Source: Nitrososphaeria archaeon (GTDB lineage: Archaea > Thermoproteota > Nitrososphaeria > Nitrososphaerales > JAAOZN01). Taken from it: a DNA stretch of 64,000 nt. The translations under genes were made by a program, and so were the position numbers. The stretch's first letter is position 1; the number at the start of each line of letters is the position of its first letter. This document shows, piece after piece, positions 1,469-30,653 of the stretch. Below the pieces are notes generated by a model. That model was given only the letters and a program-made list of their open reading frames with translations. It searched no databases and was not told the origin of the DNA. The stretch lies in contig JARVJZ010000006.1 of NCBI GenBank assembly GCA_029775855.1, positions 1-64,000 on the forward strand, read 5' to 3'.

Positions 1469-2566
1469 TTACTCTTCTTTAGTTAGTGTAAGCAGCGCTG
1501 ATTCAGCGTCTGGAAATATATGTATTTTTACTCTACTACCTTTATGTCTAAAAATATAGGGTAAGGCATCTGAAGCACTTCTTATGTAATCAAAACCAAT
1601 CTTATTTACATAATATCTTGGTAGGGTTGAAATAAGCCCAACCTTAGTACGCTTGCTTAACCACCTCAAGTAAATTATATCCTCTAAACCATCCACATAA
1701 TCACCACGCGTAAGATAAGATTCTACATCCCTAGTAGCAGCTAACCTCAGCGCTTCAGAACCCAAGCCTTCGATGCACTCCGCAAAGAAGACCATTACAC
1801 ACCCTTCCACATCCCTCGCTACATTCCAAAGGGAATTGAGCGCTGAAGCTAAGGTGGCTGCTGACTTACCTAAGCCTGCTGAGGCGATTATCGCTTCCGG
1901 CGGGGAACGCAAGTTAATTTCACATATCTCTAAAAGATTTTGTGAAATCTGCTTATGCGCATTAATCAACTCACCAGCAGCTACATCAACCAAGATGTTG
2001 CCTAAATAGATGTATTCTACACCTAAGATGTTAGGAGCTTCAGAATAGGCGTAGAGACTCGCGTCTGTCTCTTTACCAGGCTTAGGTTCACTATCACGCA
2101 TATACTTAAAAGCCTCAGCCATAAAAGTTGGATTTAGAGTCTTAAGTAGTGTAACTGCGCCTCCCGAGAATCCAAATAAGGGATCTAAGCCAACTCTTGA
2201 AATAAAGATCTTAGTATCATATTCCACCAAATCTGACGCTGAGATATGTTTCACATCTACATTCAACCCTTCACACGCCTTTTTAAGCCAAGAGTATATG
2301 CTTCTTTCACAACCTACTGTAATGGATGTTACTGTACTGCTCACTTTTGCGGCGTTGAGTATAGATTTCAAGATGATAGCCGAGGCTTCATCGGTTTCAG
2401 ATAAGAGTATCAAAGATTTGCCCCTGAATTCAATCTCTTTTATCCTACTCATCAAAACATTCTCATCTAGAGGTTTGATGTTTGGGGTATAGATCTTAGC
2501 CACATTCTCCACCTTTACATTTATAGGCACCTCAACTGTACCGTATGGAAGCCATACCTCAGGCAT
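1469..2566 (-). CDS. LarA/DUF2088 (lactate racemase-like) family protein, degenerate
   Basis: N-terminal WLPYG, GFSGG motif, and C-terminal AECIEGLG ... FPDA typical of the LarA family. Confidence 0.7.
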   Translation of the reverse strand: MPEVWLPYGTVEVPINVKVENVAKIYTPNIKPLDENVLMSRIKEIEFRGKSLILLSETDEASAIILKSILNAAKVSSTVTSITVGCERSIYSWLKKACEGLNVDVKHISASDLVEYDTKIFISRVGLDPLFGFSGGAVTLLKTLNPTFMAEAFKYMRDSEPKPGKETDASLYAYSEAPNILGVEYIYLGNILVDVAAGELINAHKQISQNLLEICEINLRSPPEAIIASAGLGKSAATLASALNSLWNVARDVEGCVMVFFAECIEGLGSEALRLAATRDVESYLTRGDYVDGLEDIIYLRWLSKRTKVGLISTLPRYYVNKIGFDYIRSASDALPYIFRHKGSRVKIHIFPDAESALLTLTKEE

Positions 2567-2628
2567 ATCCTGTACACTATAAGAAAAGGGAAGACTTAAA
2601 GATAGTTATCAATACACTATAGGCTGAG

Positions 2629-3258
2629 TTGGCTGAAGATACGGCTGAGCGCATAAAGCTGGTTAGAGATTTAAGTAAAGTCTTAGTTAAGATGGATGCC
2701 ATACAGTTCGGCACCTTTAAGCTTACAAGCGGCAAACTTAGCTCATACTACATCAACCTAAGGCTTGTGCCTAGCTTCCCCGATGTCTTTAAAGAGACAG
2801 TCACATGCTACCTTCACATCATAAAAAACGAGATTGGATTAGCTAGCTTCGACGCAATATGCGGAATAGCCACCTCAGGGTTAACATTTGCTGCTGCTGT
2901 AGCATATATTCTGTCAAAGCCCTTAATCTACCTCAGGCGTGAAAAGAAGGAGCACGGTTTAACCAAGAGATTAGAAGGTGCAATCTACCCAGGTTGGAAG
3001 GTTCTGGTGTTAGATGATTTAGCCACAACAGGCGAATCCATATTAACAGCCGTAAATGCTGTGAGAAGTGAAGGGGGAATAGTAGGAGACGCGGTAGTAC
3101 TTATAGATAGGAAAGAAGGAGCTGAAAAGGCTCTACTTCAAGAAGGTGTTAGAATGCATGCATTCACAAACATATCTGAAATATCTGAAATACTCTACGA
3201 CGCTGGAATGCTCGACTACGAACAGATCACAGCGATAAGGGCGCAGATGCAAAGTTAG
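2629..3258 (+). CDS. pyrE: Orotate phosphoribosyltransferase
   Basis: FGTFKLTSGKLSSYYINLR, RREKKEHG, PRPP-binding VLDDLATTGES. Confidence 0.95.
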   Translation: MAEDTAERIKLVRDLSKVLVKMDAIQFGTFKLTSGKLSSYYINLRLVPSFPDVFKETVTCYLHIIKNEIGLASFDAICGIATSGLTFAAAVAYILSKPLIYLRREKKEHGLTKRLEGAIYPGWKVLVLDDLATTGESILTAVNAVRSEGGIVGDAVVLIDRKEGAEKALLQEGVRMHAFTNISEISEILYDAGMLDYEQITAIRAQMQS

Positions 3259-3812
3259 TAGATCATAAGGTTCTTACTTTCGAGCAAAGTGTGCAGATTG
3301 TTAACCGCTTGGTAAACCTCTGACTCCTTCTTTGCACCTGTGCAGACGAGTTTCCCGCTGGCGAACAGAAGTATCACTGTTTTAGGCTCCTGCATTCGAT
3401 GAATCAAACCTGGGAATTGCTCTGGTTCATACATTGATCTTGGGAGTTGCCTTGCCGCCTCTTCAAGATGAACCCTGCCCCCTAGGCTCGCTGAGGCTAC
3501 AATATTTTGTATCTCGATTATAGGCTCGTTCTGAACATCTATTCCTCCTTTTCTGAGGCGTTGAACAACCATCTTTACGGCTTTAATTGCTTGATCTTCT
3601 GATTTTGCCCCTGTGCACACCATTTTGCCTGAGCTGAATATGAGGGTTGCGGTTTTAGGCATCTTAAGTCTGAAGACGAGACCGGGAAATTGGTCTGGAT
3701 GGTATTCTACATCTGTGAAGTTTCTTGTTATCGCATTGAGGTCGACTCGCTGGTTTATGGTTGCAGAAGCTACAACATTTTCTATGCTTATTATAGGTTT
3801 TGTCTGGGGCAT
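3255..3812 (-). CDS. tbp: TATA-box binding protein
   Basis: Two repeats of NVVAS...YxPxQFPGL...LxFxSGKxVCTGAK. Confidence 0.98.
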   Translation of the reverse strand: MPQTKPIISIENVVASATINQRVDLNAITRNFTDVEYHPDQFPGLVFRLKMPKTATLIFSSGKMVCTGAKSEDQAIKAVKMVVQRLRKGGIDVQNEPIIEIQNIVASASLGGRVHLEEAARQLPRSMYEPEQFPGLIHRMQEPKTVILLFASGKLVCTGAKKESEVYQAVNNLHTLLESKNLMIY

Positions 3813-3883
3813 TTATACCGCCCTTTAATAAAGCTTGGGGTAGTATTTAAACCGTATTTGAAACCTTTTAATTCTAAAGAGCT

Positions 3884-4375
3884 TTACCTGCGTTTTAACT
3901 CAGCTATAAATATCAGCGCGATGAAAAAAAGAATGAGAAAATAATTTAACGGAGGTTGTATGATTGAAGTGATCCTTCCTATATAGGGGAGGGTAAGGAT
4001 AACTTTGCCGATGTAATGTGACTCTCTAACTACCCAAGAATCAGGAGCGTAGTTATTGTCGCCCTTAGTGTAAATAGCTACCCCATATTGATCTGAGGCC
4101 ATACCATATATCCTGTGAACGATTACCCGCCCATCACCAGAAGGGCTGTGAAAGACTATGATGTCGCCAACCTTTAGGCTTTGAAATGTGTCTTTATCTC
4201 TCACTATAATGATGTCGCCCACGTTTAACGCTGGTATCATGCTTCCTGAAGATACTACATAAGCGGGGTTGGATGTGCCTAGCGCGAATGTAAGACTTGC
4301 CCAGAATACGATAACTAAAATTATGGTTATGGAGACATAGGCTACAGCGCGGGCAATAGGTCTTAGCATCTTCAC
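3884..4375 (-). CDS. Signal peptidase I (archaeal/ER-type S26B)
   Basis: VVSSGSMIP (catalytic Ser), GDIIVF, IVHRI (His), TKGDNN. Confidence 0.92.
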   Translation of the reverse strand: MKMLRPIARAVAYVSITIILVIVFWASLTFALGTSNPAYVVSSGSMIPALNVGDIIIVRDKDTFQSLKVGDIIVFHSPSGDGRVIVHRIYGMASDQYGVAIYTKGDNNYAPDSWVVRESHYIGKVILTLPYIGRITSIIQPPLNYFLILFFIALIFIAELKRR

Positions 4376-4540
4376 TTTCTTATCCTACAATGGGTAAGAT
4401 AGGACTACACTTAAGGTTTATTTTAACAATTTACTTTTGATTACTGATTTGGGTTATGGACAAAATATTTAAGAGTGAATAAGGTGAGGCTGGTTAGGTA
4501 TGCTTGACTTAAGTAGTATGCAAGGGGCAGTGTAGACCCG

Positions 4541-5197
4541 TTGGAAGTTAATGTCTTAGAGGCTGATAATAGTAAGGTTAAGGTGCTCTTAAGCGGTGTA
4601 GATAGAGTTTATGCTAATGCCGTAAGAAGATTCGCTTTAAGCGAAGTGCCTGTGATGGCTATAGATGATGTGGTCATCTTAGAAAATACATCTATACTAT
4701 ATGATGAAGTTCTTGCACATAGGCTTGGGCTTATACCGATTTATACCGATCTAACTAGATACACATTACCAGAAGAATGTGACTGTAAAAGTGAATTAGG
4801 CTGCCCAAGGTGCAGAGTACTTTTTGTGCTGGACGCAGCCGCTGAAGATAAACCTAAGACGGTATATTCTGGAGACCTTGTTTCAGAAGATAAGGAGACC
4901 AGACCCATAAGCCCAAATATACCTATTGTAAAACTTGCTCCTGGTCAGAAGCTGAAACTTGAAGCATATGCTAAACTTGGCAGAGGTAAGAACCACGCAA
5001 AATGGCAGCCAGCTACTGTGGCTGTGCTCCGTGATGTTGAAGAAGAGGGTAAAAAGTTTGAGTTATATATCGAATCTGTAGGCGCACTTCCCGCTACTGA
5101 AATACTTTTACAAGCGATAAAGATACTTTACGCCAAGATGAATAAAATATTTGAAGAGGTGGAGGGTGCAGAACTTGACAAGCAGGAGAGAAAGTAG
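4541..5197 (+). CDS. rpoD: DNA-directed RNA polymerase subunit D (Rpo3)
   Basis: ANAVRRFALSEVPVMAID, DEVLAHRLGLIP, HAKWQP. Confidence 0.96.
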   Translation: MEVNVLEADNSKVKVLLSGVDRVYANAVRRFALSEVPVMAIDDVVILENTSILYDEVLAHRLGLIPIYTDLTRYTLPEECDCKSELGCPRCRVLFVLDAAAEDKPKTVYSGDLVSEDKETRPISPNIPIVKLAPGQKLKLEAYAKLGRGKNHAKWQPATVAVLRDVEEEGKKFELYIESVGALPATEILLQAIKILYAKMNKIFEEVEGAELDKQERK

Positions 5198-5543
5198 AAA
5201 CCCACTACTTAGAAGCGATATAGTAGCCTTAAGGAAAGCATCTAAAGCTAATAAAAACAGACTCTGGAAGGCTGTTGCGGATCAGTTAGAATGTAGTAGA
5301 TCAAAAAGAGTAGTTGTTAACATTGGGAAGATAGCTAAGCTTACTAAGCCCGGTGATGTTGTTGTCGTCCCGGGTAAAGTTTTAGGTGGGGGTCTTATAG
5401 AGCATAAGGTGGTTGTAGGAGGTTTTTCCTTCTCTCAAGTAGCTCGTTCAAAGATTTGTGCTGCTGGCGGTGAAGCTTTAACTATTAGAAGGTTAATCGA
5501 GGCTTATCCTACTGGCAAGGGGGTTAAGATTATTGGAGGCTAA
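5175..5543 (+). CDS. rpl18e: 50S ribosomal protein L18e
   Basis: VNIGKI...VVVPGKVLGGG...FSQVARSKI. Start moved to TTG 5175. Confidence 0.94.
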   Translation: MTSRRESRNPLLRSDIVALRKASKANKNRLWKAVADQLECSRSKRVVVNIGKIAKLTKPGDVVVVPGKVLGGGLIEHKVVVGGFSFSQVARSKICAAGGEALTIRRLIEAYPTGKGVKIIGG

Positions 5544-23478: not shown

Positions 23479-24141
23479 TTATGTCTTTTGCCGGAAATGG
23501 TTACTCTGAAGTATTGTGTATAATGCTGCTGCGAGTGCACCCTCTTCAGCAGCTTTAACAGAATTACCTCCAACGATAATAATTGAATCACCATCTCTAG
23601 GTTCTAAAAGAGACTTCAGAGAGTCCCAGAGGGGAATAAGATAACTCTTTTCAAGGTCAATTTCCGTATGAGGAAGTAAAAATCGCTTACCCAAATATAC
23701 TATTGTCGTCGCACCATCCGCCCCAGCCCTAACAGCAGCATCACGCTGCTCCAACCCAGACTTTACTTTAGACGCAGAATCTCGAATCAGCACCACATAA
23801 TTCCACTTACCTTGGCTTAAAGGGCCGGCATCTATAGGCTTTGGTGGTGTAAGCATTTTAAGGAGGCTTCTGTGAATTAATTTGCCTGCATCGGTCAATT
23901 TGCATCCACTACGCTCTACTTTAATAAGGCTACGCTCTTGAAGTCTGTTCAGCATCGTCCTAACCGAACCCTCACCTAGCTGAAGAATTCTTGCGATCTT
24001 CTTCCTACCTATAGGCGTATCCTCACCGAGCAAGAATATCAGCTTCAATATATCAACTACTTCAAAAGTTGGTTTTGGACCTATAGGTTTCTCTAAAAGT
24101 TCAAGAAGCGTCTTTAAAGAGTTAAGTGGCTTAGTCTGCAT
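23479..24141 (-). CDS. wHTH transcription regulator with DUF4443/DUF2111-like C-terminal domain
   Basis: IGRKKIARILQLGEGSVRTML HTH; GLEQRDAAVRAGADGATTI. Start set to ATG 24141. Confidence 0.8.
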   Translation of the reverse strand: MQTKPLNSLKTLLELLEKPIGPKPTFEVVDILKLIFLLGEDTPIGRKKIARILQLGEGSVRTMLNRLQERSLIKVERSGCKLTDAGKLIHRSLLKMLTPPKPIDAGPLSQGKWNYVVLIRDSASKVKSGLEQRDAAVRAGADGATTIVYLGKRFLLPHTEIDLEKSYLIPLWDSLKSLLEPRDGDSIIIVGGNSVKAAEEGALAAALYTILQSNHFRQKT

Positions 24142-24181
24142 CCGTATAAAGAGTGTTAAGGATGTTGAAAAACTTGTTGGC

Positions 24182-24676
24182 TTATCTTCCAGCCGGCTTA
24201 CGCAGATTAGGGTAGTTCGATGTATCTTCGTAGAGCCAAGCCAGTATATCACCTTGCTTTATCATGTATTGGTCTGCGGCTGTTTCCCCTATTGTCCATT
24301 CACCTTTCTCTTTATCGAATCTCCACCATATCCAGTAGTGCCCTTTTTGAACTACCTTTGTCCCGACACCATCTATACCATTAACGAAGACGCCCATATC
24401 ACTTCCAAGATACTCCACAGATCGGCTAACCTTTAGAGTAGCGTTCAAAAGAGAAGAGCCTATTGGAAGAAGGGTGTTATTATGCCAAACCAAACTACCA
24501 TTACCATAATCTATCAGCAAGTCAACTTCAAAAGCAACACCCCTTAACTCACTTAAAACATAATTATAGCGGCTCTTAACATCAATGCTATCAAGATAAA
24601 AGTAGACAGAAAGGCCACTACTTAACACAAGAAGGATCAAAAGGACAACCGATAGAGCGGAGAGACCTTTCTTCAA
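24182..24676 (-). CDS. Membrane-anchored DUF4430 (transcobalamin-like C-terminal) protein, CbrS-like
   Basis: N-terminal TM helix; IDYGNG...GVFVNGIDG...YWIWW...AADQYMIKQGDILAWLY. Confidence 0.75.
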   Translation of the reverse strand: MKKGLSALSVVLLILLVLSSGLSVYFYLDSIDVKSRYNYVLSELRGVAFEVDLLIDYGNGSLVWHNNTLLPIGSSLLNATLKVSRSVEYLGSDMGVFVNGIDGVGTKVVQKGHYWIWWRFDKEKGEWTIGETAADQYMIKQGDILAWLYEDTSNYPNLRKPAGR

Positions 24677-25225
24677 CTACTTCACCTTCAACACTTGAAC
24701 ACTGAGCAGATTTGAAACAAGAGGAACCAACTTAGGAGGAAAGAAGGAGAAAAGAACAAGGTTAGAAGCTTGATGAAGCAGACCCAGAGGAACAGGAAAG
24801 TTCATAGTAAGAACACCAACCAACACCCCAGGCCAAAGAGTATTTGTAAAAAGAACACCGCTCACAGCATTAGTCAGCAGATCATAGCTCAAAGTAGAGA
24901 GTAGCCCAATTAACCCAAGTTTAAGAGGATGAAGAATACCCCTCCTAGCACAGAAAGAACCAGCAGCGGCATAAAAGACTTCACAACAAGCCACAGAAAT
25001 CAGAACAACATAGGAGAAACCTAAGGGGTTAAATACACCATAGATCAGCCAAGAAAAAACAGCAACAACCACACCAAATCTGAAGCCAAGGGTATACGCA
25101 GAGATAAAGACTATAACATCCATAAGCTTGACATTCCAAATAGGGAAGAGCAGATAGTTTGTGGAAACCGCTAGCGCGGTAAAGAGGCATGCTGCTGCTA
25201 ACATCTTTGCGTTTTTTGCGAGCAT
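24677..25225 (-). CDS. ECF transporter S component, CbrT-like (putative cobalamin)
   Basis: About 6 TM helices; NVKLMDVIVF, NPLG, LSYDLLTN, HQASN; abuts the DUF4430 gene. Start set to ATG 25225. Confidence 0.6.
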   Translation of the reverse strand: MLAKNAKMLAAACLFTALAVSTNYLLFPIWNVKLMDVIVFISAYTLGFRFGVVVAVFSWLIYGVFNPLGFSYVVLISVACCEVFYAAAGSFCARRGILHPLKLGLIGLLSTLSYDLLTNAVSGVLFTNTLWPGVLVGVLTMNFPVPLGLLHQASNLVLFSFFPPKLVPLVSNLLSVQVLKVK

Positions 25226-25322
25226 CTTGGATGGATTATCCAACCAACTTATATTAAAACATATCTCCAAACTAAAATGAGAAGCGAAGGTCAACTTTTA
25301 TTAACAAGCAGTATACATTACT

Positions 25323-27398
25323 TTGCGTTTAAGGTTGGTGGGTGAACTGTTATCCGGTAGCAAAAGAGTAAAGGGAATATTCTCTGTCATCGCTTCTGCT
25401 AATAGGCTTGAAATTGTAAAGATCCTTAACGCTAAAGGGGCTCTTAGCTACTCTGAGTTAAAGAGTTTAGCCGGTTTCAAATCTAAAAAGGAGTCTGGGA
25501 AATTCGCTTATCATCTTAGAAAACTTGTAAAACAAGGTCTAGTTACCTTAAATAGGGCTGAGCGCAAATATATTATTACAAGTCTAGGTAGGCTTATACT
25601 TAACCTTAGTAGACAGATAGAGGAGCACGCGGTACTAGAGAGCGGAAAACTCTATGTGCGCACATCAAAACATAAGATAGAAGAGTTTAACACAAACAAG
25701 ATTACACAAAGCTTAGTCAAAGAAGGCGGCATGCCCCTTGACCTTGCTCAAAAGGTTACCGCTGAGGTTGAGAATAAGATCTACAAATTTCAAACAACAT
25801 ATCTGACCGCACCATTAATCAGAGAAATAGTTAATGCAGTGCTCATAGAGCAGGGGTTTGAAGAGTATAGACATAAGCTTACTAGGCTTGGTCTCCCAGT
25901 CCACGATGTTATTGAGTTAATCAGTAAAGTCGGCTTATCTGGAGAAGGAGTAGAAGTCTTAATGAGTCAGACCGCTCAAGCCGTCTTTTCAGAGTTCCTC
26001 CTTCTAAACCAGTTGACCAAAGATGTTGCTGACCTTTATTTGGCTGGGGATACGCACATCTCAAATCCAGGAAGATGGGGAATAGCTCCAGATACAGTTG
26101 TCGCCGATGCTGCTTGCCTTCAAACATCCAGCATAAATCCTAGTATGCGAATGCTTGCTGCGCCTAGACTTACATCTCCAACAAACTTTTCAGAAGCGCT
26201 TTCAATACATTCTGCTGCAACGATTCTCTTAGCTTCGGAGTGCAATACTGAGCTCTGCTGGCTTAGATTTGGTGAATATGTTGCGCGTGCTGCTAAGGAT
26301 ATTTCTGACAAACAGTTGATGGAAGATCTATATAGAGAGTTTGTGTTGATAGGCACAGTTTTGGGGCAGAGGGGTGCTAAGCCGAGGGTTTCATTGCACA
26401 TAGGGGAATGTGAGTTAACAGATTCAGATAGAACCAATAACATACTTGGGGGATATAGAAGGTATGTTGAGGCAACACCTCTACCCACTATAAACATAGT
26501 TTTACATGGCAGCATAGGCGATGATACATTAAATGAGATTTACAAGCTAGTGATGGTTGGAGGAAGCTTAGCCTTCTGTCCAAGCAAGCAGGACACTAAC
26601 TCATATTTAGGTTTGAGGCTAAGTGCAACATCCCAAGAAATTTCTACATTAAGCATGCTTCTCCACGGCTTCTCAATAAACTTACCTCGACTAGCTAGAG
26701 AGTCCCAAGAAGATGAAATGTATTTTAGGGCGAAGATGACTATACTTCTAAAAGACGCTCTAGCAGCGCTACAGACCAGAAGAGGAATAATTCTAGAGCA
26801 AGTGAGAAAAGGAGTGCTCCCTATAATAGAGAACAACACACAGACAGCAGCGTTAGAAGAAATTCCAACTATCCTAAACTTAGCTGGACTGTTAGAAGCG
26901 TCTCAAATACTGCTAAAAGATAAGAGAAACCAGAGCGCGTTAATGTCCATAGCTGAGAAGACGATAGAAACAGCGGTTAAAGGAACAAACACAGAAGAGG
27001 AGACAGCTGTGTCAATAGTGCCGGAGGAAGGATTAGCAAGACTAGCGGCACTAGATATTGAGAGATACGGTAAAACAGCTACAATATCATCTTTGGAAGA
27101 AGGGTATTCAGCGAGCCTCGAGCTTGATGCAGATAAACTAGACGAAGAAAAATTAAAACTAGCTGAAATATATTCAAGAAAATTGACCGGAGGATGCTCA
27201 ATATCGGTCAGAATAAACCCAAATATGAACATTGACGGTTTTAAGGAAATCCTCAACACACTCTCAACCAGATTTACATTCTTTAAGATAGGCTTAGACA
27301 TTAGCATCTGCAGAAACTGCGGAGCCAAGAACGCATCGACCGCAAGCCGCTGCAATGTCTGTAAATCGACACGATTGGCAAGGATGCAGATACTCTAG
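25323..27398 (+). CDS. ArsR-like wHTH + ATP-cone + degenerate class III ribonucleotide reductase (NrdD-like) fusion; probable transcription regulator
   Basis: RLEIVKIL...SYSELK...FAYHLRKL (wHTH); YVRTS...EEFNTNKITQSL...TAPLIREIVN (ATP cone); SINLPRLA, LAGLLEA and C-terminal CxxC..CxxC (NrdD body). Confidence 0.8.
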   Translation: MRLRLVGELLSGSKRVKGIFSVIASANRLEIVKILNAKGALSYSELKSLAGFKSKKESGKFAYHLRKLVKQGLVTLNRAERKYIITSLGRLILNLSRQIEEHAVLESGKLYVRTSKHKIEEFNTNKITQSLVKEGGMPLDLAQKVTAEVENKIYKFQTTYLTAPLIREIVNAVLIEQGFEEYRHKLTRLGLPVHDVIELISKVGLSGEGVEVLMSQTAQAVFSEFLLLNQLTKDVADLYLAGDTHISNPGRWGIAPDTVVADAACLQTSSINPSMRMLAAPRLTSPTNFSEALSIHSAATILLASECNTELCWLRFGEYVARAAKDISDKQLMEDLYREFVLIGTVLGQRGAKPRVSLHIGECELTDSDRTNNILGGYRRYVEATPLPTINIVLHGSIGDDTLNEIYKLVMVGGSLAFCPSKQDTNSYLGLRLSATSQEISTLSMLLHGFSINLPRLARESQEDEMYFRAKMTILLKDALAALQTRRGIILEQVRKGVLPIIENNTQTAALEEIPTILNLAGLLEASQILLKDKRNQSALMSIAEKTIETAVKGTNTEEETAVSIVPEEGLARLAALDIERYGKTATISSLEEGYSASLELDADKLDEEKLKLAEIYSRKLTGGCSISVRINPNMNIDGFKEILNTLSTRFTFFKIGLDISICRNCGAKNASTASRCNVCKSTRLARMQIL

Positions 27399-27453
27399 CC
27401 GCGTAAGCACAGCATTGAAGTTAGGAATTTATAATACGCACGTCAGTTCAGAC

Positions 27454-27559
27454 ACCAACTCAATAGTAGAGCCTCAGTAAAGGAGGCTTTGTCAAAAAAT
27501 CTTGATGAATAAAAGGAAGTACAGTCCCTTCTTAATCTAGGAGCTACTTATTGGGTGGT
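27454..27559 (+). promoter_or_regulatory. Structured 5' leader of nrdJ (candidate cis-regulatory RNA)
   Basis: TATA-like TTTATAAT at 27428-27435. Closing helix 27454-27469/27544-27559 encloses three hairpins. Confidence 0.45.
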
Positions 27560-29702
27560 ATTTAGGTTGACATCTGAGTCTCAAAGTGGTCTATCAACCG
27601 TTAGGAAGCGGGATGGTAGAATAGTACCATTTGATAGATTAAAGATAGCTAATGCGATTTACAAAGCTGCTAAATCTGTTAATGAAGGTGACCTGAATGT
27701 TGCTGACGAGCTATCATTAAAAGTTGTTAAAGTATTAGAGGAGAAGTATAAGAATGGCGGTATACCTACTGTAGAGGAGATTCAAGATGTAGTAGAAACA
27801 ACTTTGATTAATGACGGATACGCTAAGGTGGCTAAGGCCTACATTCTCTATAGGCAGAAGAGGGCTGAGCTTAGGCGTGCAAAAGCACTTCTTGGTGTTG
27901 AAGATGATCTAAAGCTTCCTATAAACGCCGTAACCATTTTGGCTGCCAGATACTTGCGCAGAGACGAAAACAGAAGGTTAATCGAGACGCCGAGACAGCT
28001 CTTCATGAGAGTGGCTAAGACAGTAGCTGAGGTTGACCTACTTTACAACCCTTCAGCTAAGGTTGAAGAGACCGCTAAGGAGTTCTTTGACATGATGGTT
28101 AACTTTGAATTTCTACCTAACTCGCCAACGCTTATGAATGCTGGGACAGAGTTAGGGCAGCTTTCTGCATGCTTTGTCCTTCCTGTAGAAGATTCTATTG
28201 ACGGCATATTTACCACACTAAAGCACGCAGCGTTAATACATAAGAGCGGCGGGGGGACTGGCTTCTCCTTTTCCAGATTAAGACCAAAAGGGGATGTTGT
28301 GAAGACTACAGGCGGCATCGCATCAGGCCCTATTTCTTTTATGACGGTCTTCGACGCAGCTACAAACGCGATTAAACAAGGTGGTAAACGCAGAGGAGCT
28401 AATATGGGTGTGTTGAGAGTAGATCATCCAGATATACTTGAGTTTATAACAGCAAAGGAGAAGGAGGGCAGGCTCTCGAACTTTAACATCTCAGTAGCTA
28501 TAACTGACAGATTTATGGATGCTGTCATAAACGGTGAAGACTATGATCTTATAAATCCACGCACAGGTCAAGCAGTGCAGAGGCTCAACGCCAGAGTAGT
28601 CTGGAATCTTATAATAGCAATGGCTTGGAAGAATGGTGAACCTGGTGTGCTGTTTATAGATAGGATAAATGCTATGCATACTGTTCCTCATGTTGGAACG
28701 ATAGAGGCTACGAATCCTTGTGGTGAGCAGCCGCTTATTCCTTACGAGTCATGTAATCTAGGTTCGATTAATTTAGCGAAGATGGTGGTTGATGGTAGAA
28801 TAGATTGGGATAAGCTTAGAAACACGGTTGAAAAGGCGGTGCACTTCTTGGATAATGTGATAGATGCTAATAAGTATCCTTTACCTGAAATTGAGAAGAT
28901 AACAAGGTTCGGGAACAGGAAGATCGGTTTAGGTGTTATGGGTTTTGCTGACATGCTGATAGAGTTAGGTGTGCCGTATAACTCTAAACCGGCTCTCAAA
29001 ATAGCTGAGCAAGTTATGAGGTTCATCGAAGAGGTGGCTGTGAATACTTCAGTAAAGTTAGCTGAAGAGAGAGGCTCATTCGCTAACTTTAAAGGGAGCT
29101 TGTGGGAGAAGCGTGGCTTTAAATGCATCCGTAATGCAACCTTAACAACTATAGCACCTACAGGCACGATAAGCGAGATTGCTGGCTGCTCCAACGGAAT
29201 AGAGCCGCTATTTGCAATTGTCTACACTAAGGCTGTGAGGGAGACATTAGGCGAAAACCTTACAATAGTCAACCCGCTATTTGAGAATGTGGCTATAGAG
29301 GAAGGTTTCTACAGCGAAGAACTTATGAAGAAGATAGCTTCTTCAACATCAATACAGCATATAGAAGAGATACCTGAGCATGTTAGGAGAATCTTTGTAA
29401 CTGCGCATGACATATCTCCAGAGTGGCACGTGAGGATGCAAGCAGCATTTCAGAAATATGTGGACAATGCTGTGTCGAAGACGATAAACTTTCCTCACGA
29501 TGCGAGTATGAACGACATAGAGCAAGCTTATCTGCTGGCATATAGGCTTGGATGTAAGGGTTTGACCGTCTACCGTGATAGGAGCCGGAGTGTGCAAGTC
29601 CTCACTACAAAGAAGGGAGAAGAAGGGGAACAAACTGAACTATTGAATATGGGCGCTAAGCCTATCGAATATTATGTGCACTGTGAATCTTGTGAATTGT
29701 GA
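27555..29702 (+). CDS. nrdJ: Adenosylcobalamin-dependent (class II) ribonucleotide reductase with N-terminal ATP cone
   Basis: [15 protein letters not shown] cone, [44 protein letters not shown] (no class I YY pair), C-terminal CxxC. Confidence 0.93.
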
Positions 29703-29711
29703 GGGTTCTCT

Positions 29712-30653
29712 TTACTCAAAATCTGGGTTTAATATTAAAGCAAGTAGCGCCGCTCTGAGATCCTTGCCGAGCTTCGCTTGTAGGAAGTATTTGGCTTGCG
29801 GGAGTCGGTCAACTTCGGGCTTTATCTCATCAACTCTGGGTAATGGGTGTAGAACTATGAGTTCTGATTTACCCCGCTCTAGTATTGAGGTGTCTACATA
29901 GTAAGAACCTTTAACTCTTTGATACTCTGTTGGATCTGGGAAGCGCTCTTTCTGTATTCTCGTAACATAGAGAACATCTAGTTCAGATATTACTTCATCT
30001 ATGCTTGTGTGTTGCGTCCAAGAATCTTTGCGTATGTCTAGAAGCGCATCTGATCTTAATCTAAGTTCTGGTGGTGAAATAAGTCTTATTTTGGTATCGT
30101 ATTTTGATAGGGCGTAGAGCAGAGAGTAGACGGTTCGGCTGTATCTTAGATCACCCATGATACCGACTGTGAGCCCATCGATTCTACCTTTTTCTCTATG
30201 AATTGTGTAGAGGTCAAGCATAGCTTGAGTAGGATGCTCTTCTGCACCTGAGCCTGCGTTTATAACTGGCTTCTCGGAAATAGATGCAGCGTATCTTGCG
30301 GCGCCTTCCCTAGAATGTCTTATGACTAGAACATCAACATACCCCGACACTACTATTACAGTGTCTGTAAAGTTTTCACCCTTCTCTACCGAAGAAGTCG
30401 AGGGGTCGGCTATACCGATGCTGCTGCCTCCTATAGAATACATCGCTGATTCGAAGCTTAGTTTTGTTCTGCTGCTTGGTTCATAGAAGATAAGCCCAAG
30501 TAGACGCCCTTCTGCTAGTTGGCGCCTTTCTTTATAGGGCATGTTTGAGATCTTTGTAGTTGCTTGGAATATTGTTTCTAATTCGCTTCTTCTGAAGTCT
30601 CTTATCGAAACTATGTCTCTTCCAAATAGTGGGTTCGGCAATCCACCTAGCAT
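29712..30653 (-). CDS. pyrB: Aspartate carbamoyltransferase catalytic subunit
   Basis: FYEPSSRTKLSFE, HPTQAMLD, TRIQKERF, HPLPR. Confidence 0.97.
   Translation of the reverse strand: MLGGLPNPLFGRDIVSIRDFRRSELETIFQATTKISNMPYKERRQLAEGRLLGLIFYEPSSRTKLSFESAMYSIGGSSIGIADPSTSSVEKGENFTDTVIVVSGYVDVLVIRHSREGAARYAASISEKPVINAGSGAEEHPTQAMLDLYTIHREKGRIDGLTVGIMGDLRYSRTVYSLLYALSKYDTKIRLISPPELRLRSDALLDIRKDSWTQHTSIDEVISELDVLYVTRIQKERFPDPTEYQRVKGSYYVDTSILERGKSELIVLHPLPRVDEIKPEVDRLPQAKYFLQAKLGKDLRAALLALILNPDFE

Follow-up and report, generated by a model that had tools for sequence, protein, structure and literature searches.

The locus and domain organization

In this study, we describe a gene in a stretch of 64,000 nucleotides from a Nitrososphaeria archaeon (positions 1 to 64,000 of contig JARVJZ010000006.1, assembly GCA_029775855.1; hereafter the window) whose product resembles NrdD, the class III ribonucleotide reductase (RNR), and has lost the residues on which the radical chemistry of that enzyme depends. 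The open reading frame (ORF) lies directly upstream of nrdJ, which encodes a class II RNR, and an operator-like palindrome precedes each of the two genes (Table 1). The reading frame opens with TTG at 25323; an alternative GTG at 25338 would fit the 686-residue form of a cluster of 99%-identical proteins (P0001).

Table 1. Features of the locus, in window coordinates
Feature	Position	Strand	Description
ORF	25323..27398	+	691 aa; winged helix, ATP-cone, catalytically dead NrdD body and Zn ribbon; candidate RNR regulator
ArsR-type winged helix-turn-helix	25377..25598	+	Residues 19-92; Pfam DUF7347 and HTH_20
ATP-cone, 'VRTS' variant	25653..25868	+	Residues 111-182; Pfam 36.8 bits (cut-off 25.8); same coordinates in the genome search
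NrdD-fold body	25908..27395	+	Residues ~196-691; homodimer predicted; AlphaFold2 model and Foldseek
Degenerate finger loop SYLGLRL	26601..26621	+	Residues 427-433; Leu431 at the position of the thiyl-radical Cys
C-terminal Zn ribbon CRNC...CNVC	27309..27362	+	C663-C680; no glycyl-radical loop after it
Operator-like palindrome GTCAACTTTTATTAAC	25290..25305		17 nt upstream of the TTG start, 32 nt upstream of GTG 25338
Second operator-like site GTCAAAAAATCTTGAT	27491..27506		48 nt upstream of the nrdJ GTG start
nrdJ	27555..29702	+	GTG start; adenosylcobalamin-dependent class II RNR with canonical ATP-cone; presumed regulated gene

The N-terminal domain matched Pfam DUF7347 with 35.5 bits (cut-off 27.6) and HTH_20 with 28.0 bits (cut-off 27); models of the ArsR family were weaker (HTH_5, 13.5 bits against a cut-off of 22; the metalloregulator model NF033788, 26 against 55). 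A Zn ribbon of the type found at the N-terminus of NrdR is not present in the protein according to Pfam: the N-terminus is the winged helix, and the sole Zn ribbon is C-terminal and of NrdD type. Pfam NRDD matched residues 444-684 only (71.3 bits); this match spans model positions 276-531 of 562 and thus leaves out the glycyl-radical end. The NrdD equivalog models of NCBIfam were all far under their cut-offs (for example, 58.5 against 326 bits), and a phmmer search against the PDB matched the Thermotoga maritima NrdD (E 0.0017).

An AlphaFold2 model built on 37 family members had a mean predicted local distance difference test score (pLDDT) of 79.6 and a predicted template modelling score of 0.67. 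The best Foldseek matches to this model in the PDB were all class III RNRs, with E values of 9.5e-19 to 2.9e-10 over 546-739 aligned columns. They include the structures from Streptococcus thermophilus (9dca, E 9.5e-19), T. maritima (4coj), phage T4 (1hk8) and Prevotella copri (8p2s), at target-normalised template modelling scores of 0.54-0.65. Residues ~200-440, which Pfam had missed, are therefore also NrdD barrel, and the structure prediction proposed earlier as a check gives the NrdD fold throughout. Moreover, a homodimer model of residues 196-691 scored 0.79 (best of three controls, 0.00), the runs agreeing in at least 97% of contacts and the partner having a pLDDT of at least 83. Of 30 proteins solved as pairs of one chain, 20 reached the mark for a dimer, as did 1 of 23 proteins solved as single chains; because NrdD dimers have already been solved, this pass may reflect likeness only.

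Loss of the radical machinery

The protein and 14 relatives were aligned by MAFFT with the NrdD proteins of Escherichia coli (b4238) and Methanobacterium virus PhiF1. The scaffold of NrdD is retained: DTHISNPG aligns with DIHYHDL of E. coli and FSINLPRLA with ISLNLPRIA, and the CxxC...CxxC ribbon is kept, its residues C663, C666, C677 and C680 being invariant in 37 family members and aligned with the NrdD ribbon. The catalytic residues are gone. The thiyl-radical cysteine of E. coli, C384 (in MGCRSFL; also MGCRTRL), falls in SYLGLRL, in which G430 is invariant and is followed by Leu. The second active-site cysteine, C175 (FNCML), is replaced by Thr258 (PDT(258)VV). This column holds Cys in 12 of 12 true NrdDs and mostly Thr, Ser or Glu among 216 homologues, where the eight commonest residues (T, S, E, A, N, V, D and I) account for 208 rows. 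The active-site asparagine is lost as well, GRNNLG corresponding to LLHG.

The chain ends ~8-11 residues past its last cysteine, C680, where NrdD runs on to RVCG(681)Y. An RxxGY motif within the last 70 residues was found in none of the 216 homologues of 600-830 aa, as against 12 of 12 true NrdDs. The finger-loop and glycine sites were judged by such motif counts; a 242-row MAFFT alignment read through the E. coli columns misplaced both. The genome searched (1.5 Mb in 6 contigs, 98% complete) holds no second PF13597 match anywhere, and its best matches to the models of the activase NrdG are under the curated cut-offs (TIGR02495, 62.9 against 131 bits; TIGR02491, 30.5 against 126).

Taken together, the alignment, the fold and the family-wide counts confirm that the protein is a class III RNR pseudoenzyme fused to a winged helix and an ATP-cone. 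The original prediction, made from the DNA letters alone, had claimed as much. It had named the motifs HISNPG and SINLPRLA and the Zn site as remnants of the scaffold, each of which is borne out by the alignment with the two reference enzymes, and its remark that the window holds no NrdG extends to the whole genome, where none reaches the curated cut-off. Nucleotide reduction should be impossible, since both cysteines, the asparagine and the glycyl loop are lost and no activase is encoded.

A variant ATP-cone

The original prediction had further described the winged helix and the ATP-cone as apparently intact. Both domains are present according to Pfam; the cone, however, is not canonical. In NrdR, the nucleotide contacts described in PMC9110341 are V48, K50, R51, E56 and K62 (Streptomyces coelicolor numbering), of which K50 and R51 bind phosphates, and the account of P. 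copri NrdD in PMC11226230 assigns the same phosphate contact to Lys7 and Arg8. Alignment places V112, E120, F122 and K126 of the window protein at positions matching NrdR nucleotide contacts. The phosphate-binding K-R pair of the canonical V-x-K-R-D-G reads T114-S115, inside a near-invariant V-R-T-S-K/R. A regular-expression search found the VRTS cone in 9 of 12 true NrdDs of related archaea as well. Because the true NrdDs mostly carry the same cone, it is ancestral to the parent NrdD clade and not a decay specific to the regulator-like form.

Distribution and conservation of the family

A word-indexed search returned more than 5000 matches, of which the best 120 are described here. These come from Nitrososphaerales and Thaumarchaeota, and they share the three-domain architecture at 686-707 aa, save three of 619-682 aa. 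Their names in the source records are inconsistent: 'ArsR family transcriptional regulator', 'helix-turn-helix domain-containing protein' and 'anaerobic ribonucleoside-triphosphate reductase' all occur, the last as the original prediction had stated for similar fusions in Thaumarchaeota. When one genome per species was scanned, at least 553 species genomes of Nitrososphaerota were found to encode a homologue, and in the phylum-wide genome search it was single copy in 59 of 59 other genomes of the same order.

Conservation was mapped on an alignment of 37 of the best 120 matches. The conserved parts are the Zn ribbon and the first 260 residues, where the invariant columns concentrate in the winged helix (F52-L68), the cone and the helices reaching to about residue 260; residues 270-440 of the barrel vary. 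Conservation is strongest in the winged helix, in which nearly all columns of F52-L68 (FKSKKESGKFAYHLRKL) are invariant. Such a pattern is expected of a protein that depends on DNA binding, the cone and the dimer helices and no longer on the former active site.

Association with RNR genes

The nrdJ product matched Pfam Ribonuc_red_lgC with 489 bits, the Pfam ATP-cone with 92 bits and, in NCBIfam, NF006417 with 980.7 bits (cut-off 961) and TIGR02504 with 753 bits. Among 80 fetched loci of the family, nrdJ adjoins in 73, directly downstream on the same strand in 72 and on the opposite strand in one (L052); the seven loci without nrdJ all have less than 410 nt of downstream flank. In eight loci of other Thermoproteota (L117-L121, L123, L126 and L127), the gene for a winged-helix form immediately precedes, in the same orientation, a genuine nrdD, recognizable by its QCC finger loop and WSR(I/V)TGYYQ tail.

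When 401 genomes of the phylum were searched with P0155, many genomes from outside Nitrososphaeria carried two matches. An exhaustive HMMER search also recovered longer relatives of 740-800 aa with the same winged helix and cone; they match NRDD almost from end to end (P0155: 307 bits, model positions 9-562) and keep a glycyl-domain-like tail without the glycine. The only ATP-cones found in the genome are those of the window protein and of two NrdJ proteins, and hence it has no NrdR, which PMC9110341 describes as 'rare in archaea'.

Several of these loci show further features. The second nrdJ paralogue of the genome (G000 contig C2:172210-174336, minus strand) lies outside the window and has a canonical ATP-cone (VKRDG). 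In many soil-clade loci among L017-L091 (Nitrososphaerales), the tblastn match to NrdJ starts at about residue 100-134; since the open frame begins only there, these NrdJ proteins appear to be without an ATP-cone of their own, and the regulator-like protein encoded upstream keeps its cone. In L122 (G004:C5, gene 2477-4384, minus strand), the NrdD downstream of the winged-helix form ends in FSRSIAFYG in place of RITGY, which may be a second, independent loss of the radical glycine. The winged-helix form of L126 (G141:C16, gene 3131-5455, minus strand) has a GCR finger loop (ATGCRFA) and no glycyl motif, and may represent an intermediate stage of decay.

A palindrome at both promoters

The pattern GTCAANNNNNNTTNAY has exactly two matches in the window, at 25290-25305 and 27491-27506, one for each promoter, the former overlapping the TATA-like TTTTATTAA. 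Across the family loci, both the region preceding the gene and the spacer to nrdJ show a more than 200-fold enrichment of the palindrome, GTCAA-N6-TTGAC. In an unbiased k-mer count, GTCAA was the top 5-mer both within 250 nt upstream of the gene (67 of 76 loci, against 31.9 in shuffled sequence) and in the spacer (71 of 73 loci, against 28.1). The partner half-site TTGAC, with at most one mismatch, stood at a spacing of 6 in 47 intergenic cases, and any other spacing occurred at most 10 times. The strict pattern, defined as one perfect half and 4/5 in the other, reached a density of 1.58 per kb in the upstream regions, with a site in 32 of 75 loci, and of 2.71 per kb in the spacers, with a site in 41 of 72; elsewhere in these loci, over 890 kb, its density was 0.0067 per kb. 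With up to two mismatches allowed, a site was present in 61 of 76 upstream regions and 60 of 73 spacers, as against ~8 in shuffled sequence.

The positions of the sites are fixed, at ~10 nt before the projected start and, in Nitrososphaerales, ~25 nt past the stop codon. At the upstream site, GTTAAATACWWTTGAC shares bases with a TATA-like TTAAATA; 10 spacers contain two sites in tandem, at a distance of 21 nt. Loci that fail the strict pattern mostly have degenerate versions at the same positions or, in Nitrosopumilaceae, the 5-spaced GTCAACAAAATTGAT. In the nrdD-type loci of other Thermoproteota, TGTCAA repeats were seen by eye in 5 of 9 intergenic regions, with only one strict site, which is at most suggestive. 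A position weight matrix (PWM) trained without the window scored the site at 25290-25305 at 15.7, the second best in the 1.5-Mb genome and the best intergenic one, and that at 27491-27506 at 12.7. A wider regulon was also considered: the other intergenic PWM matches precede unrelated genes (an AAA-type protein, peroxiredoxin, phosphoglycerate kinase, a CorA-like protein and others) and were taken as chance.

The spacer holds other elements. A second intergenic word, CATGAGAC / GTCTCATTGAC, recurs, ATGAGAC being present in 23 of 73 spacers and CGTCTCA in 26 of 73; it often abuts the TTGAC half-site (seen in L015, L017, L038, L054, L061, L075 and L093). In the window, a hairpin AGCCTC-AGTAAAG-GAGGCT followed by TTTG lies at 27469-27490, just before the second palindrome, and may be the end of the upstream transcript.

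Evolutionary history

A maximum-likelihood tree was built from the cone and body with the winged helix removed and was rooted at its midpoint; the group labels of the P proteins were assigned by us. It splits 35 winged-helix forms from 12 true NrdDs with a support of 100/100. The Nitrososphaeria forms make up one clade (100/100) on a long stem (0.97), nested among other winged-helix forms. In the simplest history consistent with this tree, the winged-helix paralogue would have arisen once, in an archaeal NrdD clade. A duplicate of nrdD would have gained the winged helix, lost catalysis and stayed upstream of nrdD; when aerobic ammonia oxidisers swapped nrdD for nrdJ, the paralogue would have been kept in front of the RNR gene.

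Neighbouring genes, expression and habitat

Two ORFs on the minus strand at 24182-25294, divergent from the gene, encode a 205-aa membrane protein with a weak match to the S component of energy-coupling factor (ECF) transporters that stays below cut-off (E 7.5e-4) and a 164-aa protein that matches DUF4430 faintly, likewise below cut-off. The palindrome at 25290-25305 sits in the divergent promoter region shared with them. As neither gene stands beside the family in any of 80 other loci, this arrangement is lineage-specific. Farther upstream, at 23479-24252 (minus strand), a 257-aa putative regulator combines a PH0730-like/CggR_N winged helix with DUF4443; it was found beside the family only in L015.

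Six contigs of at least 99% identity from one metatranscriptome run lie on the gene and on the start of nrdJ, a weak hint that both are expressed. The RNA contigs of run X8 skip 27440-27554, and such Logan contigs are uninformative on transcript ends or co-transcription; runs X13 and X14 yielded only short pieces or sequence from other organisms. DNA runs containing 83-99% of the sampled words of positions 25000-29900 are all labelled hot springs metagenome and come from three studies, and for this reason the organism is probably a thermophilic member of its group.

Discussion

We consider it likely that the protein is an RNR-specific, dimeric and probably nucleotide-sensing transcription regulator derived from a fossil class III RNR. 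That the enzyme had been repurposed as a regulator was already thought plausible in the original prediction, and the idea now draws support from the invariant synteny with an RNR catalytic gene (nrdJ, or nrdD in anaerobic relatives) and from the palindrome at both promoters. In the mechanism that we propose, the NrdD body would dimerize as NrdD does and serve as a module for dimerization and sensing. The two N-terminal ArsR-type winged helices would bind GTCAA-N6-TTGAC, at one site overlapping the TATA-like element of the gene's own promoter and at another 48 nt upstream of nrdJ. With its half-site centres 11 bp apart, the palindrome is compatible with a dimer; NrdD itself is dimeric. Occupancy would be set by nucleotides at the variant cone, at the NrdD-derived effector site of the dimer interface, or at both, and RNR expression would thereby be tied to the pool of (deoxy)nucleoside triphosphates ((d)NTPs), as it is by NrdR in bacteria. 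With regard to the sign of regulation, repression at the gene's own promoter is the favoured option.

A bolder form of this proposal is offered tentatively, as one possibility that we rate well below even chances. A whole class III RNR would have fossilized into a sensor of the nucleotide pool that outlived its own enzyme, beginning as a repressor of nrdD and later being retained as the master switch of the unrelated, B12-dependent nrdJ in nearly all ammonia-oxidising archaea. The balance of dNTPs would be sensed at the former specificity site of the NrdD dimer interface in addition to the cone, and the protein would thus answer to all four dNTPs, unlike NrdR.

Several observations weigh against a nucleotide-sensing RNR regulator and deserve to be considered together. 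Sensing of ATP or dATP by a cone that has no K-R pair is uncertain, and conservation is poor inside the barrel, the former active site included. Two matches to the pattern in a window of this size are not unusual (1.02 are expected, and 27 of 100 shuffles reach two), so that only their placement is notable. In 43 of 76 upstream regions and 32 of 73 intergenic ones the strict pattern is missing, and the second nrdJ of the genome, on contig C2, is preceded by no 6-spaced site, only by the 5-spaced GTTAA..TTAAC (GTTAAACACCTTAAC). The PWM is partly circular because it was seeded from the consensus, the locus counts are not independent because the loci belong to related species, and part of the conservation of the upstream site may be promoter signal because the site overlaps a TATA-like element. 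The link between the protein and the palindrome is one of co-location, from which we infer binding. Finally, the metatranscriptome run may contain DNA carry-over.

An alternative is a DNA-binding regulator whose effector is not the (d)NTP pool or whose regulon is not centred on RNR, such as a sensor of adenosylcobalamin, a redox sensor acting via the Zn/Cys site, or a constitutive architectural factor. The cone without the canonical phosphate binders agrees with this reading, as do the requirement of nrdJ for B12, the divergent neighbours that resemble an ECF-type S component and a DUF4430 protein (both below cut-off), and the PWM matches at a few unrelated promoters. However, the true NrdDs of the parent clade share the VRTS cone, which in them is expected to serve as an activity site, and V112, E120, F122 and K126 match four of the nucleotide-contact positions of NrdR. 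Moreover, the synteny extends to RNR genes of two classes, one of which does not use B12, and the ECF and DUF4430 neighbours recur in 0 of 80 loci. On balance, we regard another effector or another regulon as unlikely. A non-catalytic RNR subunit acting by protein-protein contact, either in inactive heterodimers with NrdD or by docking on NrdJ, with a winged helix that is secondary or has no role, seems to us somewhat less probable still. It would account for the NrdD dimer interface retained in the model, for the position beside a true NrdD of the same clade in anaerobic relatives, and for the many NrdJ proteins of Nitrososphaerales that appear to be without their own ATP-cone. It would leave unexplained why the winged helix is the part conserved best and why a palindrome with dimer geometry stands at both promoters; Nitrososphaeria have no NrdD for it to pair with, and NrdJ is of a different class with no known NrdD contact.

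The reading implied by the database name, namely that the protein is a functional class III RNR, or a different glycyl-radical or thiyl enzyme, built with unusual residues, is extremely improbable. The fold and the Zn ribbon are indeed of NrdD type, and several sources name relatives 'anaerobic ribonucleoside-triphosphate reductase'; yet both cysteines, the asparagine and the whole glycine loop are missing across the family, no NrdG reaches its cut-off, all NrdD equivalog models fall far short of theirs, and the hosts are aerobic ammonia oxidisers with nrdJ. An RNR-specific regulator continues to be the reading that we prefer.

It is instructive to compare this candidate regulator with known systems. 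Several archaeal regulators, among them ThiR and RbkR, are derived from enzymes, a metabolic enzyme domain joined to a DNA-binding domain serving as ligand sensor for the genes of the pathway. The present protein would follow this scheme and differs from these in the enzyme family involved, in the complete loss of the chemistry and in that an RNR of another class would now be controlled in Nitrososphaeria. ArsR/SmtB regulators typically bind inverted repeats as dimers. The N-terminal domain matches HTH_20, HTH_5 and NF033788 weakly, at or below the family cut-offs, and dimerization would come from the NrdD body and not from ArsR helices. With NrdD, the homology covers the whole length after the winged helix, that is, the ATP-cone, the 10-stranded barrel, the NLPR motif, the Zn ribbon and the predicted dimer, and the closest structures are the NrdDs of S. 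thermophilus, T. maritima, T4 and P. copri. In contrast to NrdD, there is no thiyl cysteine, second cysteine, active-site asparagine, glycyl-radical domain or activase, and there is an additional N-terminal winged helix. The protein lacks four defining catalytic features; it is a paralogue of NrdD and not an enzyme.

The closest functional counterpart would be NrdR, the bacterial RNR repressor composed of a Zn ribbon and an ATP-cone. Both proteins combine a DNA-binding domain with an ATP-cone and are encoded at or near RNR genes, and both are associated with palindromic boxes at an RNR promoter and at their own promoter, sometimes in pairs separated by whole helical turns (here 21 nt, in 10 spacers). 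The archaeal protein would also do the same job, tying RNR transcription to nucleotide pools. However, its DNA-binding domain is a non-homologous winged helix of ArsR type in place of the NrdR Zn ribbon, it carries a dead NrdD body of 500 residues and a cone without equivalents of K50 and R51, the sequence of the box differs, and the host is an archaeon, a domain in which NrdR is rare according to PMC9110341. We therefore infer that the protein is an analogue of NrdR by function and not a member of the NrdR family. No published description of the family was found by full-text literature search or in two papers on RNR phylogeny, the supplementary files of which may list it.

The control of RNR transcription in archaea is largely unknown, because NrdR is rare there, and this family provides a concrete candidate for it both in ammonia-oxidising archaea, a group that ranks among the most abundant microbes on Earth, and in anaerobic relatives of that group. 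The label 'anaerobic ribonucleoside-triphosphate reductase' would wrongly imply anaerobic dNTP synthesis in metabolic reconstructions of these archaea. If our interpretation is true, the family would be a clean case of a radical enzyme reused in its entirety as a transcription factor, with the regulator keeping its place when one class of regulated enzyme gave way to another.

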